A stretch of DNA of 43,055 bases from a virus (Duplodnaviria > Caudoviricetes): IMG/VR virus record IMGVR_UViG_3300035685_000004, positions 1 through 43,055 of that record. One strand, written 5' to 3'. The translations under genes were made by a program, and so were the position numbers. The notes beneath the pieces are model-generated. The model saw only the letters and a program-made list of their open reading frames with translations, did no database searches and had not been told where the DNA came from. Positions 1 through 39,920 of this stretch are shown here, piece by piece; within the stretch, counting starts at the first letter, position 1, and each line of letters opens with the position of its first letter.

Positions 1-127
1 GGGACGAGGCCGGGGCTGACGACGGGGAGCAGTCCCGTCGCTGCGGCCGGTGCGGTCTCACCCACGCCAACGCCCATGGCTGAGACGGCCCGAAGGAAAT
101 CGGCCAGCGTCATCTCCTGGCCCGATG
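1..127. repeat. Terminal direct repeat, left copy (circular-assembly overlap)
   Basis: 1-127 is identical to 42929-43055, and an ORF reads through the junction. Confidence 0.95.
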
Positions 128-554
128 GCAGCTTGCGCGGCTCCTGGAAGCCCGTGCCCTTCCAGGCGTGGAAGGCGAGGTAGCCCCGGTTGGTGGAGGT
201 GCAGCGGTTGACGTTGTCCAGGCGCTTGAGTACGCGCTCCATCAACTCCGGGGTGACGTCGCCCTGGGGCGCCCCGGTAATCTTCGTCCCGTCCTTCGCC
301 TCGGGGATGAAGTGCTTCAGCGCCTCTTGGAGGAAGCACTGGCGCTCATGCTCCTCAAGCTGGGCGCGGAGCGTCGCCTCCAGTTTGTCGAGCAGGTCCT
401 TCGCCCGGTTGTAGGACTGGACCCAGACGCCGCGCCCCAATTCCCGGATGCCGATGAAGTCGCTGGTGATGCGGCCGGGGATGTTGACGATGGGCGGGGT
501 GGCGCGGGCGGTTGAGCACAGCAGCGCAAGCAGGACGGGGATGAATCGACTCAT
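1..554 (-). CDS. Predicted secreted protein of about 199 aa spanning the circular junction (continues 42928 to 42883)
   Basis: Hand translation from ATG at 554 with GGAGG upstream gives MSRFIPVLLALLCSTARA-TPP (signal-peptide-like). The frame is open to position 1 and continues to TAG at 42883-42885. It is absent from the ORF track. Confidence 0.75.
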   Translation of the reverse strand, partial: MSRFIPVLLALLCSTARATPPIVNIPGRITSDFIGIRELGRGVWVQSYNRAKDLLDKLEATLRAQLEEHERQCFLQEALKHFIPEAKDGTKITGAPQGDVTPELMERVLKRLDNVNRCTSTNRGYLAFHAWKGTGFQEPRKLPSGQEMTLADFLRAVSAMGVGVGETAPAAATGLLPVVSPGLV

Positions 555-599
555 GAGACCTCCGGGGTGAACAGCAAAGGCAGGGTAGCAGCCGGGCGC

Positions 600-637
600 A
601 GAAACGCGAAGGGCGTCACCCTCGCGAGTGACGCCCC
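600..637 (-). terminator. Intrinsic terminator
   Basis: Stem GGGCGTCAC/GTGACGCCC followed by TTCGCGTTTCT on the minus strand. Confidence 0.7.
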
Positions 638-661
638 GGCAATGCGCGCGTGCGCGGCCGA

Positions 662-928
662 CTACCGCACGTTCTCGTAGACATCGAGAAGCATCATCAG
701 GCGGTTAGCCGCGTCCGCCACGTGCTTGCGCATCGACTCGTTGGAGCCCCCCGCCTCGAGGCAACGCTCAATCTGATCGAGGTTGGACTCCACGGCCTTG
801 AGATGCTCGCCCTCGTTCTGCTTGAGCCACCCGTCCCGGTCTCCACGATAGCGGTTCTTCTCCAACTGCGCTTCCATCAACTCCGCGAAGGCGAGGACAT
901 GCTTCGCGGTGGGGCTACTTTCGTTCAT
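662..928 (-). CDS. Small phage protein, possibly all-alpha NTP-pyrophosphatase (MazG-like) family
   Basis: FAELMEAQLEKN...GW...HVADAANRLMM resembles a common phage family with an ExADVAN-type motif, but the acidic motif is degenerate. Confidence 0.5.
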   Translation of the reverse strand: MNESSPTAKHVLAFAELMEAQLEKNRYRGDRDGWLKQNEGEHLKAVESNLDQIERCLEAGGSNESMRKHVADAANRLMMLLDVYENVR

Positions 929-998
929 AGCGAGTCCTTGGTAAACGCCGCACACGATTGGCGGCACGCGTACGGTAGGACCTTCTGAGCCAGAGGCA

Positions 999-1033
999 AG
1001 AAAGACGAAGGGCCCCGTTGCCGGAGCCCTCGC
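999..1033 (-). terminator. Intrinsic terminator, CTTCGTCTTT family
   Basis: GAGGGCTCC-GGCAAC-GGGGCCCTT followed by CGTCTTTCT. Confidence 0.75.
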
Positions 1034-1085
1034 CTACCCTTGCGCCGGGATTTCGTGGGTGCCCCGCGTCGGCGGAGCAATGCCG

Positions 1086-1376
1086 TTACGGGGTGCGCTC
1101 GTACACGGTGACCATCTTCTCCACGGGGCGCACCTCGTGACAGACGATGGTGTCCTTGGCGTACTGAAAGGGTGTCTCATCCTGCTGCTCGGTGGCGCCT
1201 CGGCTGTACTGCGTCACGTAGAACTTGCCGGTGCGCAGATCCTGAAACACCATCTCATGACGGATGGACCAGCGCCCCGTTCCCGTGATGCGGTCGGAGA
1301 TGCGCTTCAGCATCTCCGGATCGTCACTGTCGGCGAGGCTGATGAGGTCTCCCTTGTTGAACTCGGCCGTTGCCAT
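1086..1376 (-). CDS. Conserved-looking phage hypothetical protein (96 aa)
   Basis: AGGAG RBS; RWS...GKFY...YSRGATEQQDE...EVRPVEK...VYE pattern recalled from phage proteins. Confidence 0.75.
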   Translation of the reverse strand: MATAEFNKGDLISLADSDDPEMLKRISDRITGTGRWSIRHEMVFQDLRTGKFYVTQYSRGATEQQDETPFQYAKDTIVCHEVRPVEKMVTVYERTP

Positions 1377-1441
1377 GTTTGCTCCTGTGAGTGCCGGACC
1401 CATCCGGCACCACAAAGGTAGCACGCCCCTCCCGAGACGCC

Positions 1442-1472
1442 AGAAAGACGAAGGCCCGCCGAAGCGAGCCCC
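1442..1472 (-). terminator. Intrinsic terminator, CTTCGTCTTT family
   Basis: GGCTCGC-TTCG-GCGGGCC followed by TTCGTCTTTCT. Confidence 0.7.
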
Positions 1473-1521
1473 GTGGAGACAGCGACCGCGCACAGCCCCC
1501 TGGACGCGGCCGACGCGGAGA

Positions 1522-1782
1522 CTACCTCGACACATCGCGCCCCGCACGGAGCAACTCGGCCACCTGCGCCGCTGCCTTGTCGAGCACGTCCATTCCCTCC
1601 TTGGCCAGCGCGGCGAGGTGCTTCTCTTCGGGCGACAGGTCACCGTTCGCCACGAGCGAGCGCAACAGCGCGGTCTGGACACTCAGGAAGGCGTTGCGGA
1701 TGGCGAAGCGGGTGAAGAAGGCAGGCGTGATGCCCTCATTCCGGATGCTGTTGATGGCGGTGATGTCGTTGCGCTGGTTCAT
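1522..1782 (-). CDS. Hypothetical protein (86 aa)
   Basis: GGAGG RBS, coding-like codon pattern. Confidence 0.7.
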   Translation of the reverse strand: MNQRNDITAINSIRNEGITPAFFTRFAIRNAFLSVQTALLRSLVANGDLSPEEKHLAALAKEGMDVLDKAAAQVAELLRAGRDVSR

Positions 1783-1856
1783 GAGGCCCCTCCGAGGTGG
1801 TTCGTCACAGGAGTCTCACAGGCCGAGAGAAACGCAAGTCTGTGGCCGGGAGGCGT

Positions 1857-2255
1857 TCACGGAAGAACGGACATCGGCACGTCTGGCTGCTTGAGTTGTG
1901 GGGCGTAACACACGCCATTCCGAAGAAACGTGCCCGGCGCGCACGGCGGCTTCTTGCGGAGACCAACCCAGCATCCTCCGGACAGGAACCCCTCTGGATC
2001 CATGCACCTCTCGCGCCGTGTCTCCTGTCCCTCTAGCGGCTTCGAGGGAAGAGGCGTGTCTGGCAGCACCACGAGCGACGTGTTGCTGGTGGTGTCGGCC
2101 ACCCAGAACGCCGGCACGTGCTCCACGTAGACCGTGGTGAGCGGGATGGGCGGCGGCGGCGCGCCAGCCGTCGTACGGAGCAGGACGAGCATGAAGGTGG
2201 CGTTGATGAGATTGCGCAGCAGGTAGGCAGGGGGCGCTTCAGGCAGACGGGGCAT
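1857..2255 (-). CDS. Membrane-anchored Cys-rich protein resembling the C-terminal ectodomain of myxobacterial Ser/Thr kinases (no kinase domain)
   Basis: Hydrophobic segment, then PSKPLEGQ..C..GGCW..KPPC..GVCYAP..PMSVLP. Confidence 0.65.
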   Translation of the reverse strand: MPRLPEAPPAYLLRNLINATFMLVLLRTTAGAPPPPIPLTTVYVEHVPAFWVADTTSNTSLVVLPDTPLPSKPLEGQETRRERCMDPEGFLSGGCWVGLRKKPPCAPGTFLRNGVCYAPQLKQPDVPMSVLP

Positions 2256-2417
2256 GCGGCCACCGTACATGCAGCGCCCACCCGGGTCACGCATTCGGCC
2301 GAATCCACTTGCGCATTGGCGTCATGCGCTTGCGGATACGCGCCATGTGGCGTCGGGGTGACAGTGTTCCGCGGCTCGCGATTCGTGCGCGGCGACGCCC
2401 AGCGGTACGCTGTGGCC

Positions 2418-2888
2418 ATGCCCTTTCGCCTGCTGTCCCCCGTCTTGCTCCTCCTCGGCTGCTCTCCGCTTAATCACCACCATGGCTACGCGGCCGACGG
2501 CGACTGCGCTGGCAACATCGAGGTGAGTTTCTCGAACCACAGTCTCCGGGCCGTTGAACTCGACGTCCACCTCCACGTGGTGATGGAGGACGGACACCGC
2601 GCCGGCACAGAGTGGGAGGTGCCCGTGGTGCCTCCGGGCGAGCTGCTTGAGCAGGACGTGATTCTGGTGCCGGAGGGCAGCATCGTCACGCTGCACGTCG
2701 AAGCCACCCTCCCGAACACCAGCGACGGCGCCCGCGGGCGGATGGCTGCCGCACAGGACGTGACGCTGGTGGTGGAGCACGGGGAGACCCACTGCGATTT
2801 CGCGCTCGTGGAGAGCGCGGGTTCAAGCCCGGTCATCTCAGCGAAGTGCGAGCAGGCCTCGTTCCGGCTCCCGACGCCCATTCCCTGA
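2418..2888 (+). CDS. Lipoprotein A
   Basis: MPFRLLSPVLLLLGC lipobox; TACGCT -10-like hexamer just upstream suggests a leaderless transcript. Confidence 0.75.
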   Translation: MPFRLLSPVLLLLGCSPLNHHHGYAADGDCAGNIEVSFSNHSLRAVELDVHLHVVMEDGHRAGTEWEVPVVPPGELLEQDVILVPEGSIVTLHVEATLPNTSDGARGRMAAAQDVTLVVEHGETHCDFALVESAGSSPVISAKCEQASFRLPTPIP

Positions 2889-2915
2889 GTCCGCCACGCC
2901 GTGGTAGGCAGCGGC

Positions 2916-3296
2916 ATGCGCTCTCTTCTGCTCCTGCTTGTCGTTGTCCTCACGGCCTGTGGCTCGCCCGACGACATCCCCATCAGCATCGTGGTCCGCA
3001 ATGACACCGTGAGGGCGGTGGCCATTGGCGTCGAGATCATGCCCGAATGGGGAGCGCTGTATCGGCGGCACTGGCCCCGCGTCGACCCCGGCGCCTCCAT
3101 CCGCGTGGACGGCCTGACGACTGGCGTGGCGAAGGGCGAAATCCTTCTCCTCGCGCAGCTCGGCGACGGACCGCACCGCATCTTCCGCTTCAAGACTCGG
3201 CGCCCCGGGCCGTGGACGTGCATCGTGTGGCCGGTGCACGTGCTCACCCCGGGCGCGGAGTCCTGGGACATCAGCGCCGACTGCCGGCCGTCCTAG
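2916..3296 (+). CDS. Lipoprotein B, probable paralog of lipoprotein A
   Basis: MRSLLLLLVVVLTAC lipobox; shares N-x-[ST]-x-RAV, VxPG and ISAxC motifs with A. Confidence 0.75.
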   Translation: MRSLLLLLVVVLTACGSPDDIPISIVVRNDTVRAVAIGVEIMPEWGALYRRHWPRVDPGASIRVDGLTTGVAKGEILLLAQLGDGPHRIFRFKTRRPGPWTCIVWPVHVLTPGAESWDISADCRPS

Positions 3297-3757
3297 GGCG
3301 CCACGCTGGTGGGTGGACGCTTCGCCTGTCGCACCGGCACGTGGCATTTGCCGGCGTGGGCGTAGTAGATGCCGCAATTGTCCGGCCCCACCTCGCCCTC
3401 GATGACGAGCCAGCACCCACCGTTGATTTCCTTCTCGCGCGGCGGTGTACAGGGGGGACGCTTCTGTCCCTCGAAAGGCTTGGATGGAAGGTTGCGCGCG
3501 ACGACACCGGCGTCCTCCTCCAGCCCGTCCGTCGCCCACGTTTCGGGCGGGGCCTCTTCGAGAACCGGGGCGGGTTGCATGTCCGCCTGGATGGCTCGCG
3601 CGCAGCTCAGCGTGATGGCGGCACACCCGAAGGCGCCGAGCGCCAACCCGCCCCACACTGCGCGCTGGAACCGCTTCCGCCGTGCCTCGCTGCTCAACTC
3701 CGCTTCCACCGCCCGCGCCCACCTCTCCGTCTTCTCCTGCTGCTCCTGCTCCGTCAT
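3293..3757 (-). CDS. Second kinase-less Ser/Thr-kinase-type Cys-rich ectodomain protein with a TM helix
   Basis: TM segment AVWGGLALGAFGCAAITL, then PSKPFEGQKRPPC..EINGGCW..C..GKCHVP..RPPTSVAP. Confidence 0.7.
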   Translation of the reverse strand: MTEQEQQEKTERWARAVEAELSSEARRKRFQRAVWGGLALGAFGCAAITLSCARAIQADMQPAPVLEEAPPETWATDGLEEDAGVVARNLPSKPFEGQKRPPCTPPREKEINGGCWLVIEGEVGPDNCGIYYAHAGKCHVPVRQAKRPPTSVAP

Positions 3758-3887
3758 GTGCCGCCCCCGCTTGGGTGAGGCGCCACCCTCGCGCACCATG
3801 TCTCGGCGCGGTATCGGGCGGGTGGCGGATTCGTCACGGACCCATCCGGGTATGCCGGGACACCGGCCGTGTGCTAAGCGGACGGCC

Positions 3888-4571
3888 ATGACCAGAACCC
3901 TCCTCGCCTTCCTCCTGCTGTTCTCCCTCTCGGCCAACGCCCAGTCCGTGGCCCCTCCGGCGCGCCCGCCGCTGGTGCGCCCGGTCGTCAACGAGCCCTA
4001 CTTCCCGACTCCGGGCGCCACGCCCGAGGGCGCAGGCGCGTCGCACGGCAGCATCCCTGGAGCCACCACCCCGCCCCGAGCCAAGGTGCCGCCCTCGCCC
4101 AACAAGCGCATCCTGCCGGCGTCCACCGAACCCGGGCTGTGGGCTGCGGATGGGGCGCCGAGGGCTTCCAGGAGCGCGCCGCCCGCGCTCTTCGGCGTGA
4201 CGCTCCCCTATCCGGCATGGGCGACCGAGCCCGAAACCCAGTGGAGCACTGACATGTGCATCGTGGGTATGCACAACTCGGCGGTCACCACCGGGATGTA
4301 CAACACGATCATCAAGAAACCGGAGTCGATCCGCGCCTGCATGGCCGCCCGCGCCTACTTGCTCTGCGCGATGGGCATCGCCAACAAGGCGGCTCCCGAC
4401 TCGCAGGAACAGGCGCTCCTGAGGAACACGGAGGCGCACGCCCAGGCGCTGGTGGACCTGCTTTGCGCGGGCGCGGGATGGACGGATGACCACGCACACG
4501 TTCTACTGCAAGCCAGCAAGGACTGGATCAAGTACGTCAACCAGTTCGCCACTGCTCATCGGCGCCACTAA
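3888..4571 (+). CDS. Secreted protein with a Pro-rich N-region and a Cys-containing helical C-domain
   Basis: Signal peptide MTRTLLAFLLLFSLSANA-Q. Confidence 0.75.
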   Translation: MTRTLLAFLLLFSLSANAQSVAPPARPPLVRPVVNEPYFPTPGATPEGAGASHGSIPGATTPPRAKVPPSPNKRILPASTEPGLWAADGAPRASRSAPPALFGVTLPYPAWATEPETQWSTDMCIVGMHNSAVTTGMYNTIIKKPESIRACMAARAYLLCAMGIANKAAPDSQEQALLRNTEAHAQALVDLLCAGAGWTDDHAHVLLQASKDWIKYVNQFATAHRRH

Positions 4572-4586
4572 CCCAGGAGAGAGCGC

Positions 4587-4778
4587 ATGCCTCAGTCCGG
4601 AACTCCGAAGCCCAACTTATCCTACCTGCTCGGCACCACCGACGAGGGAGTTCTGGCAGAGGCCGAGCGTGTGTGGGCTGGGTGGGTCTCGGCTCCGTCG
4701 GGATCCCTCGATGTCGGTGGTCTCCGCGCCGCCTTCTCGGGCACCACGGCGCTCCCTCCGCCCGAGGACAAGCCATGA
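4587..4778 (+). CDS. Hypothetical protein (63 aa)
   Basis: GGAG RBS; ATGA overlap with the next gene. Confidence 0.55.
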   Translation: MPQSGTPKPNLSYLLGTTDEGVLAEAERVWAGWVSAPSGSLDVGGLRAAFSGTTALPPPEDKP

Positions 4779-5011
4779 GCAACGACCGAGACGACATTGC
4801 CGCCGCCCTGCACCGCCTGGGAGAGGACTCCTACGACGCGTCCGCCGAAACCCGGAGGATGAGCGAGGAGGTCCGAGGCGCGACCGAGCGCGTGTCTGGA
4901 ATCTCCCAGTGGTGGCGAGCGGAAGTCGCCCGCTTCGATGCTCTCGCTGAGGTGGCCGAGCCCGTGGAACCCGTCGGCCTCTTTGGTCCGTTGCCCATGG
5001 CCACGGCCTGA
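4775..5011 (+). CDS. Hypothetical protein (78 aa)
   Basis: GAGG RBS; translationally coupled start. Confidence 0.6.
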   Translation: MSNDRDDIAAALHRLGEDSYDASAETRRMSEEVRGATERVSGISQWWRAEVARFDALAEVAEPVEPVGLFGPLPMATA

Positions 5012-5126
5012 ACGATGGGTCGTCCCAGACCCACCGTATTCGGGAGGATGTTGCAACCGCATGGCATTATGGCACAAGCGCTCCACCGTGACGGGAATCA
5101 ACCCGCCACGTCACACCGGAGTCGCC

Positions 5127-5462
5127 GTGTCCTCTCGCCTCATCCTGCTCGTCCTGGGTCTCGTCATCGCCCCGTTGCTCGCGGGGTGCGGGGACCTTCC
5201 CCCGGCGCCCACGCCGCAGCCGACCGACGGTGGGGGCGGCGGGCGGTATGACGACGAACCCTGCCACCCGGGACGCTTCGTAGGCGAGTCGCTCGCCACC
5301 TCGGAAAAGGAGATGGTCGAGTGCTACGGCCGATGGCTCATCAGGACGCCGACCGAAGTTGTTTTCTGCCCCAGCGCGCCGAATTCCTGGGCATGTCCGG
5401 TCCCCGCACTCCAGTTCGTGGTGGACCGTGAGTTGATTGTTGGATGGTCAGGTACGCACTGA
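5127..5462 (+). CDS. Lipoprotein C, convergent with the receptor-binding gene
   Basis: GTG start with GGAG RBS; LLVLGLVIAPLLAGC lipobox; four further Cys. Confidence 0.7.
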   Translation: MSSRLILLVLGLVIAPLLAGCGDLPPAPTPQPTDGGGGGRYDDEPCHPGRFVGESLATSEKEMVECYGRWLIRTPTEVVFCPSAPNSWACPVPALQFVVDRELIVGWSGTH

Positions 5463-25459: not shown

Positions 25460-25654
25460 ATGGAGTTCAAAACGAAGGCTCAGGCCCAGTTGGCCATCGA
25501 CGGCCATGAGTCGCGGGCGAAGAAGTGCGACGAGATGGCCGCGTGGCAGCGCGTTGCGCACAAGCGCGAGCACGAGGAGAACGCCGCCCGCTATCATCGG
25601 CGCAAGGCCGAGGAAATCCGCGCCCTGCTCCCGAGCCTCCCGGAGCCCACCTGA
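25460..25654 (+). CDS. Small helical protein, MEFKTK paralog 1
   Basis: MEFKTKAQAQ...IRALLPSLP. Confidence 0.75.
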   Translation: MEFKTKAQAQLAIDGHESRAKKCDEMAAWQRVAHKREHEENAARYHRRKAEEIRALLPSLPEPT

Positions 25655-25899
25655 TGCCCCCGCGCAAGACGATGACGTTTCGCGAATGGCGCGAGTCGAA
25701 GGGGTGGACGCAGAGGCAGGCAGGCGAGCACTTCGGCTGGAGCCAGCAGCGGCAAGGGCAATTGGAGAGGGATGGAACCGATAGCCTTGGCGTGGTGGAC
25801 TACGTGAAGGCCAAGACGGGCGGCAAGGTCACGCGCCTGGACTGGCCCGAGGCGGAGTACAAGCCCAGCCACACGGCAACGAGACGCCCCGACCCTTGA
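25654..25899 (+). CDS. Cro-like/XRE HTH regulator
   Basis: FREWRESKGWTQRQAGEHFGWSQQRQGQLERDG...TGGKVT..DW. Confidence 0.8.
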   Translation: MPPRKTMTFREWRESKGWTQRQAGEHFGWSQQRQGQLERDGTDSLGVVDYVKAKTGGKVTRLDWPEAEYKPSHTATRRPDP

Positions 25900-28108: not shown

Positions 28109-28354
28109 CTACCGCTTGCGCCACCCGGGCGAGGCGAGGCCGAAGAGCACGGCCACGTCGGTGATGGCGTCGGCGGCCACCTGGGCAGGGTGACCCACCG
28201 GGAAGGCCCTTGCGGTCACCAGAGCTGCGGCGACGAGCGCGGTGAGCCACGGGACGGCCTTGGGCGGGATGAGCGCGCCGTGGGCGGGTTCGGGTTGCTG
28301 CTCGTTTTTGAGGACGGGTCGCCCCTCGGAGAGGGACACGGCGGGGTCGGACAT
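28109..28354 (-). CDS. Holin-like small membrane protein
   Basis: Two hydrophobic segments and a basic tail WRKR; AGGAGG RBS. Confidence 0.5.
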   Translation of the reverse strand: MSDPAVSLSEGRPVLKNEQQPEPAHGALIPPKAVPWLTALVAAALVTARAFPVGHPAQVAADAITDVAVLFGLASPGWRKR

Positions 28355-28383
28355 GCTGCCTCCTGTGCCGAGCGAAGGCTCGG

Positions 28384-28758
28384 CTAGGGCGGCAGCGTAC
28401 CCCGGGCCGAGCGTACTGGGAACGCCGGCTGGCTCCGGAGCACCTCCCGGACGTCGCTGCGCACCTCGAGCACCACGGCCCGGACCTCGCCCAGCGTCGC
28501 CGCCTGCACGTCCAGGCGCCCCCTGTCCACCGCGGCCTGGGCCTTCAGGGCGTCCACCTCCGACCGGAGCGCGCTGTTGTCGATCCGCCCCTGGTCGATG
28601 TCGCGCCGCATGAACTCGGTTTTCATGAAGAGTCCACCGGCCAGCACCGCCACGCCAAGCACGCTCGCCAATACCTTCCAGGAAAAGGTGGTCTCGTCGT
28701 TGATGGCGACGACGTGACGTGTCGGAACCGGCGGACCCGGGGCGGGTTGCTGACTCAT
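28384..28758 (-). CDS. TM + coiled-coil protein, possible lysis accessory
   Basis: VLASVLGVAVLAGGLF followed by heptad-like sequence. Confidence 0.55.
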   Translation of the reverse strand: MSQQPAPGPPVPTRHVVAINDETTFSWKVLASVLGVAVLAGGLFMKTEFMRRDIDQGRIDNSALRSEVDALKAQAAVDRGRLDVQAATLGEVRAVVLEVRSDVREVLRSQPAFPVRSARGTLPP

Positions 28759-33517: not shown

Positions 33518-33742
33518 ATGTCCAAGAACAGCCCCCGTGCCGCTGTGCTGCTCGGCCAGCGTCTTCGCAAAGCCCGCCTCGCCGCTGGCCTTTCGCGGGC
33601 CGGTATAGCCCGCAACCTCGGCGTCGTCGAAAACTCCGTCGGCAATTGGGAGGCCGGCACGTCCGGCATCAAGGTGATCGACATGCTGAAATTCGCCAGC
33701 GCCTGCTCCGTGTCGCCCGCCTCCCTGCTGGAGGGGTTGTGA
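33518..33742 (+). CDS. XRE-family HTH regulator (74 aa)
   Basis: LGQRLRKARLAAGLSRAGIARNLGV..NSVGNWEAG. Confidence 0.9.
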   Translation: MSKNSPRAAVLLGQRLRKARLAAGLSRAGIARNLGVVENSVGNWEAGTSGIKVIDMLKFASACSVSPASLLEGL

Positions 33743-39130: not shown

Positions 39131-39714
39131 GCGCCGGACAGGACTATCTCGCCCTGAAGAGGCGGTGCGAGGAGGCGGAGAGGGAACGGAACGCCTTCGA
39201 GGCGCAGGCGGCGGATTGGCAACGTGTTGCGAACGAGCAGGAGCAGCGGGCCGAGCGCGCCGAAGCGGACAACGCAGCGCTGGTGGAGGCGTTCTCCGAC
39301 CGAGACGCGCAATGGGCGGACCGCGCCGACTGGCAGGGCTTCTGCCCGCTGCGTCGAACCGTCGGGTGCGAGGGCACGGACGGACGACTATCCGGCTTCG
39401 GCACTCCACGTCCGAAGCCGCACGGCGAGCACTGTCCGTTTCGGCTGCTCACCCAATCCCACCCCGGCGCCGCGCTGCTCGCCGCGGTGAACGACCTGCG
39501 CCGCCGCTTCGATGCGGCCACGGACATCGGCCTTGAGGCGTGCGAGGAACGCGATGCCGTTGCGGCAGTGCTGGACGACGCCCTTGCCGAGAACGCCGCG
39601 CTGCGCAAGGTGGCGAGCGAGGCGCGGCGGTATCTGGTTCACCCGGACGTCAGCGGAATGCCGCTGCGAGACGCCCTCGCCGCTGTCGACACCCTGAATG
39701 GAGGTGAGTCGTGA
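39127..39714 (+). CDS. Coiled-coil protein with a CP..C..H..HCP cluster
   Basis: Coupled ORF. Confidence 0.7.
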   Translation: MSAGQDYLALKRRCEEAERERNAFEAQAADWQRVANEQEQRAERAEADNAALVEAFSDRDAQWADRADWQGFCPLRRTVGCEGTDGRLSGFGTPRPKPHGEHCPFRLLTQSHPGAALLAAVNDLRRRFDAATDIGLEACEERDAVAAVLDDALAENAALRKVASEARRYLVHPDVSGMPLRDALAAVDTLNGGES

Positions 39715-39920
39715 CGCTGCTCGTGCTGCTGGTGCTGGCCGCCGCGCCCGTGAGGTGTAACGAGGGCCAGAAGGAGATTGAGGGGAAGTGCTACCGGCCC
39801 GTTCCGCCCCTCCGGCGCATGCCGGCCGGGGTTGCGTACTGCGCCGAGGGCCAGAAGAGCAACGGGCAGCACGGCATCCACCTCGTCTGCTACGAGTCCG
39901 TGAAGGAGAAGCGGAAGTGA
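39711..39920 (+). CDS. Small secreted Cys-rich protein
   Basis: Hydrophobic N-terminus; two CxEGQK...CY repeats; GGAGG RBS. Confidence 0.65.
   Translation: MTLLVLLVLAAAPVRCNEGQKEIEGKCYRPVPPLRRMPAGVAYCAEGQKSNGQHGIHLVCYESVKEKRK

Follow-up and report, generated by a model that had tools for sequence, protein, structure and literature searches.

The two genes described here, ORF A and ORF B, each end in a module of about 65 amino acids with four cysteines, for which there is no prior description. Judging from the comparisons below, the proteins that share this module seem to form a family of the myxophages, with architectures linked to phage lifestyle, more than a captured piece of a host kinase. 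Its main carriers are a long form, in which a domain of about 120 amino acids (the N-domain) is followed by a membrane helix and the module, and short forms like A and B. We think it possible, with a probability of roughly 0.35, that A and B are output-less competitors which blunt the long, receptor-like members of the family, chiefly those encoded by prophages.

Both genes lie in a viral record of 43,055 bp, the whole of which is called the window here (Table 1). It has direct terminal repeats, a CheckV completeness of only 63%, and terminase, portal, Clp-type protease, capsid, connector and long-tail genes. The range of the module family points to a myxobacterium as the probable host. The preliminary description was right that the genome contains no kinase: there was no match to PF00069 (Hanks-type Ser/Thr kinase) in the record, and a purpose-built kinase profile gave a best E of only 0.15 among the 632 reading frames of the window. 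The tyrosine integrase family PF00589 was not found in it either, and the two ORFs are outside any lysogeny module. Two HTH repressor-like genes (25654-25896 and 33518-33739) are present despite the lack of a tyrosine integrase. Scans for promoters, terminators and repeats gave nothing specific, and a RecT-based search for close phage relatives returned distant matches only.

Table 1. Features of the window, with positions counted from its first nucleotide
Feature	Position	Strand	Remarks
ORF A	1857-2255	-	132 aa (137 aa from alternative ATG at 2270); hydrophobic segment weak; linker rich in Pro, with W-V-A-D; ends in 4-Cys module
4-Cys module of ORF A	1860-2075	-	
Marginal membrane or signal segment of ORF A	2178-2228	-	hydropathy
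Lipoprotein-like ORF	2418-2888	+	lipobox by eye; no family match
Lipoprotein-like ORF	2916-3296	+	stop overlaps ORF B stop; no family match
ORF B	3293-3757	-	154 aa; charged N-terminus of ~35 aa, then membrane helix and acidic linker (W-A-T-D); ends in 4-Cys module
4-Cys module of ORF B	3296-3514	-	small beta-strand domain predicted
Predicted membrane helix of ORF B	3590-3646	-	hydropathy; basic residues N-terminal of helix
Secreted-looking ORF	3888-4571	+	homologue near module gene in viral contigs L007 and L025
Pair of small membrane ORFs	28112-28758	-	kept in L008, L013, L020 and L031; lysis-like by eye
69-aa ORF	39711-39920	+	hydrophobic N-terminus, half a 4-Cys module (E 1.4e-4 in the 632 frames); may be a secreted third relative

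The module has the motif Q..C..GGCW..C..G.C[YFH].P, whose cysteines are C84, C95, C105 and C116 in ORF A and C103, C115, C128 and C138 in ORF B. It had been stated that in both proteins a membrane segment precedes the motif. The motif is present in both; the membrane segment is clear in ORF B (hydropathy 1.69 over 19 aa, with five K/R before it and none after it) and marginal in ORF A (by hydropathy only, 1.22 over 19 aa and 1.55 over 17), where it could be a signal or a release-type anchor. From the positive-inside pattern, the module of ORF B is predicted to be periplasmic. The two proteins are 35% identical over 96 columns (E = 4e-8). Among the 632 frames, a module profile scored ORF B at E = 7e-28 and ORF A at 2e-21, with the next best at 1e-4, where the scores of A and B are partly circular since the profile alignment includes both; independent support comes from tblastn matches of both ORFs in Mx4, Mx8 and Mx9. 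We rejected recent duplication as the origin of the pair, given the 35% identity and a weak tree in which they are not sisters.

To see how far the module extends, we took the last 73 residues of ORF B, which found 420 matches at E up to 0.001 among 1.84 billion representatives. The best 149 of these (ORF B excluded) were examined; the list is biased towards the kin of ORF B, and some of its short rows may be fragments. By our own profiles they comprise 7 full kinases, 12 kinase fragments, 28 proteins with the N-domain and 102 short or other forms. The claim that the module resembles the C-termini of kinases was borne out, as 8 of the 149 exceed the Pfam kinase cut-off; one more is an HTH fusion. 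All four cysteines are invariant in 38 of 38 aligned rows, for which reason A and B do not have the look of decayed genes. The protein ends at most 15 aa after the module in 290 of 296 rows, and a hydrophobic segment precedes it. Word-seeded homology searches, which have a low sensitivity, found nothing for the ORF B module in longer proteins and only ORF A itself for ORF A.

Structurally, the module of ORF B was modelled as a small beta-strand domain (pLDDT 80). It gave no match in PDB sequences, Foldseek PDB, BFVD or VIA (48,161 chains), which for a model of 73 aa does not imply a new fold, and the Atlas offered leads only (kinase and "P60 protein" clusters, TM at most 0.44). A periplasmic location with disulfides seems probable for the module. 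It is joined to varied inside parts, namely a kinase, the N-domain, an HTH (P0079) or none, and the simplest reading of several outputs behind one membrane helix would be that it is a periplasmic sensor. Rare architectures include the HTH-membrane-module fusion P0079 and the tandem double module P0130.

The model of the long-form N-domain is confident (pLDDT 84), with five strands and helices. In the myxophages this domain has no family match and no catalytic kinase motifs. It may bear a weak likeness to the kinase N-lobe, confined to about the first 50 residues: hhalign gave a probability of 4.9 (E = 0.008), the Foldseek rows are nearly all kinases but every E is at least 0.08, and in VIA the kinase rows reach Z of 2.4-3.0 (rmsd 1.9-2.5, several over the first ~50 residues only) while the top rows are unrelated. 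One could go further and suppose that a shared receptor family senses phage entry through the module and signals by a kinase or a shrunken kinase-like N-domain, the output-less copies of non-integrating myxophages being decoys that silence it. This wider version seems to us a speculative one, at about one chance in four.

Next, we asked where the module occurs in host genomes. With 37 candidates scored per genome, 15 of 151 genomes of the phylum have a match (a weak one in G123, a 58-aa frame, was dropped). Of 141 genome matches the best 80 were taken; they fall into 78 loci, which belong to the Myxococcaceae/Archangiaceae wherever the title names the group. In these families the module is found at the C-terminus of full Ser/Thr kinases with HRD and DFG; these membrane kinases (PF00069) share the module and the linker with A and B, and the membrane helix with B (that of A being marginal), but have the kinase domain that A and B lack. 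On the other hand, only 12 of the 80 module ORFs at the host loci are full kinases, the rest being 7 fragments, 50 N-domain forms and 11 short forms, and in a complete Cystobacter genome (G001) 27 of 32 copies have frames no longer than 325 aa. In most samples, carriers without a kinase domain outnumber the kinases. The module is mostly kinase-less in hosts as well, which largely agrees with what the original proposal named as its refutation.

The kinases had also been described as an expanded family. This holds for two genomes, G037 and G152, with 30 and 37 copies, of which 28 and 32 are of kinase length (frames of at least 430 aa); 21 of 22 long frames fetched from them are full kinases. The description is right for some lineages only, copy number being lineage-specific. 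From the low-copy genomes 20 regions were fetched, with 4 kinases and 16 kinase-less copies. An integrase is within about 5 kb of 11 of the 16, and three further kinase-less regions are, by eye, among phage-like genes. A kinase-ectodomain profile (150 candidates scored) found no kinase-length match in 7 of the 9 low-copy genomes with prophage-type copies. For Corallococcus, the genus of G002 according to the title of L050, 12 of 21 genomes match and 3 have a 484-aa frame, while 9 of the 10 genomes with a short-frame copy show no kinase-length partner; this set overlaps the nine-genome set, and its frames were inspected in part.

These counts bear on the initial suggestion that A and B, as dominant-negative or sponge versions, jam host Ser/Thr kinases with the same ectodomain. 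Targets would be plentiful if the host were of the type of G037 and G152, with about 30 such kinases per genome. However, the idea is weakened by the 9 of 10 Corallococcus kinase-less carriers in which no kinase-length partner was found, as it is by the hosts with prophage copies, most of which show no module kinase. Neither ORF is near any kinase lineage. The 13 best module matches of ORF B are all short forms (46-60% identity), its best kinase reaching 49% over 67 aa, and ORF A has about 35-43% identity to every class. In a poorly resolved tree (296 rows, 81 columns) A and B are not sisters and neither is nested among kinases. The linker motif W-x-x-D is found in 6 of 10 viral short forms and in both window genes, and in none of 44 full kinases. 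The notion of an output-less decoy remains plausible, but host kinases are less likely targets than the kinase-less long forms, and we consider a decoy aimed at host kinases unlikely.

In phages, the lack of a kinase domain is the norm for the family and not special to the window genome: a kinase gene is present in 1 of 25 module-bearing viral records, 21 kb away from the module gene. Mx8 and Mx4 have two copies of the module each and Mx9 has three; there was no Mx1 record among the viral matches. Mx8 p2 and p60, Mx9 p06 and p38 and Mx4 p71, which GenBank lists as hypothetical or unknown, resemble A and B in having the 4-Cys module behind a membrane segment, which in ORF A is marginal. Most of these genes keep the N-domain and lie in lysogeny modules, whereas A and B have no N-domain and come from a phage without a tyrosine integrase.

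This difference can be quantified. A same-strand integrase is located 0.4-1.9 kb downstream of the module gene at 15 of 15 distinct long-form viral loci, compared with 0 of 9 short-form viral loci (within the fetched flanks) and 2 of 78 genome loci; the counts are for tyrosine integrases, the viral loci were chosen by their match to the module, and the duplicates L006, L011 and L014 were left out. None of five short-form records, of which 3 have a completeness of 90% or more, contained PF00589; two fragmentary records were set aside. Short forms recur across several phage groups. Both forms, long and short, are present in Mx8.

The long forms have a characteristic position. Mx8 p2 (L002:364-1158) is a long form and overlaps the stop codon of imm, which is annotated as necessary for superinfection immunity. 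Many myxobacterial prophages (L002, L005-L029) have the long form between an Imm-like repressor gene and excisionase/integrase. Of the small genes adjacent to long forms, 13 were picked by hand: 9 upstream on the same strand, 3 divergent ones, and Mx8 p61. They include an Imm-related group and another that is unrelated. A profile built from 8 small genes adjoining long forms, with Imm left out, matches Mx8 Imm at E = 2e-16. We also considered a ribbon-helix-helix fold for the Imm-like genes; Pfam did not confirm it (best E 0.1).

Our preferred reading, that of competitors to the long forms, can be put together as follows. The module, held in the periplasm by a single membrane anchor, would act as a sensor. 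The position beside the repressor suggests that lysogens produce the long forms, which would serve in exclusion or in the control of induction and may thereby defend the lysogens. Lacking a signalling part on the inside, A and B are likely to be membrane blockers. Short forms would bind the same cue or pair with the long forms, and so compete for cue or partner, and phages without an integrase would carry output-less copies as such competitors. The joining of the module to several inside outputs, as expected of a sensor module, speaks for this reading, as does the occurrence of long forms with integrases and of short forms in integrase-less phages. Against it weigh the presence of both forms in Mx8, the selection of loci by the module, the marginal anchor of ORF A, and the lack of resemblance to any particular long form (best identity about 37% for ORF A and 41-48% for ORF B). 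The same can be said of the short forms in host chromosomes (L032, L033, L124) and of an origin by tandem partial duplication (L131, L143).

The position in the lysogeny module would equally suit direct superinfection exclusion, in which the anchored module itself keeps the DNA of other myxophages from entering; long and short forms would then share one task, with the inside domain of minor importance. P22 SieA and TP-J34 Ltp are small membrane-anchored phage proteins, as A and B are predicted to be; Ltp adjoins int in a lysogeny module, as the long forms do (PMC3952083), and SieA is an inner-membrane injection blocker (PMC10883804). A and B are moreover inside a cluster of lipoprotein-like and secreted ORFs past the tail genes. 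However, neither has a match in Pfam, PHROG, NCBIfam or PADLOC, by which no described Sie family of the SieA or Ltp type has them as members; no sequence link to SieA or Ltp was found, and neither of those two has a counterpart in host kinases. Exclusion also leaves unexplained why the N-domain is kept at 15 of 15 integrase-linked loci and why hosts fuse the module to kinases. We regard it as a serious but less probable alternative to competition with long forms, on a par with the entry-sensing version above.

For a prophage-borne, kinase-related protein in exclusion there is a precedent in Stk of 933W, which according to PMC3681748 acts in phage exclusion. Stk is an active kinase, whereas the myxophage long forms have no catalytic motifs and A and B have no inside domain at all. 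In M. xanthus, a periplasmic anti-sigma sensor has been proposed to detect phage (PMC11506125). The word "kinase" occurs 0 times in the accessible portion of PMC6070905 and 0 times in the main text, as far as accessible, of 10.64898/2026.09.14.751636, whose supplements may list module genes. In the mostly open-access literature covered, we found neither the module nor phage decoys of kinase ectodomains described; the 1998 paper on Mx8 immunity may have tested orf 2.

Among viruses of eukaryotes, the poxvirus viroceptors and the baculovirus PK2 are decoy receptors or truncated-kinase inhibitors. They are output-less receptor or kinase copies in a virus, as A and B are, but folds and hosts differ, and the decoy action of A and B is putative. 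Were the short forms decoys, they would represent a counter-defence by receptor decoys that acts at the bacterial envelope. Although the module matches neither a family model nor a known fold, it is in all three model temperate myxophages and in many prophages beside repressor and integrase, reaches about 30 copies in some host genomes, and has an architecture that tracks phage lifestyle. Even if the short forms are not decoys, Mx8 p2 and p60 offer direct access to a gene of the lysogeny module and to a class of myxobacterial kinases without a ligand.

Possibly, A and B are neutral cargo without a role, left by truncation of a gene that is prone to duplication. For example, Mx8 p60, which is noted in GenBank as "similar to Mx8 p2", has the appearance of an Mx4 p71-type gene with a deletion, and the copies in hosts are dispersed, with unrelated neighbours and about 100 bp of common upstream DNA. 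On the other hand, A and B are so divergent from each other, yet every cysteine and motif residue is kept; ORF B has relatives of the full architecture at 52-64% identity, and the spread of short forms over several phage groups also weighs against it. We find the absence of any role improbable.

Lysis timing, with the module as a periplasmic antiholin-like regulator of the phage's own lysis proteins, is suggested by four related contigs (L008, L013, L020, L031), where a short module gene is just upstream of the pair of small membrane genes. The weak anchor of ORF A also recalls release-type anchors such as that of T4 RI. However, the pair has no PHROG annotation and in the window is about 25 kb from A and B, and the long forms sit in lysogeny modules. 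This explanation is, in our view, about as doubtful as neutral cargo.

Several observations concern the surroundings of module genes. In L131 (2579-2998) and L143 (2304-2882), a full kinase is overlapped at its end by a short gene that nearly duplicates the membrane segment and module of that same kinase. Host long-form copies (L034-L109) have unrelated neighbours and, within subfamilies, ~100-130 bp of common upstream DNA; they diverge directly past the stop codon, resembling a dispersed cassette. SitA5/SitA6 polymorphic toxin genes adjoin some host copies (L046:2973-4286, L049:3465-4253, L134:4499-5854). For a supposed link to DUF2381 operons, neither literature nor neighbour clusters gave support.

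In the window, positions 1-5462 hold the cluster past the tail genes that includes A and B; its lipoprotein-like and secreted ORFs have no family matches, and 4775-5011 resembles part of a tape-measure cluster. A search of the Atlas with the 3888-4571 ORF found nothing. Lipoprotein genes are neighbours of the module gene in Mx8 too (p58, p59). Only the 3888-4571 gene shows an ortholog-like recurring neighbour arrangement.
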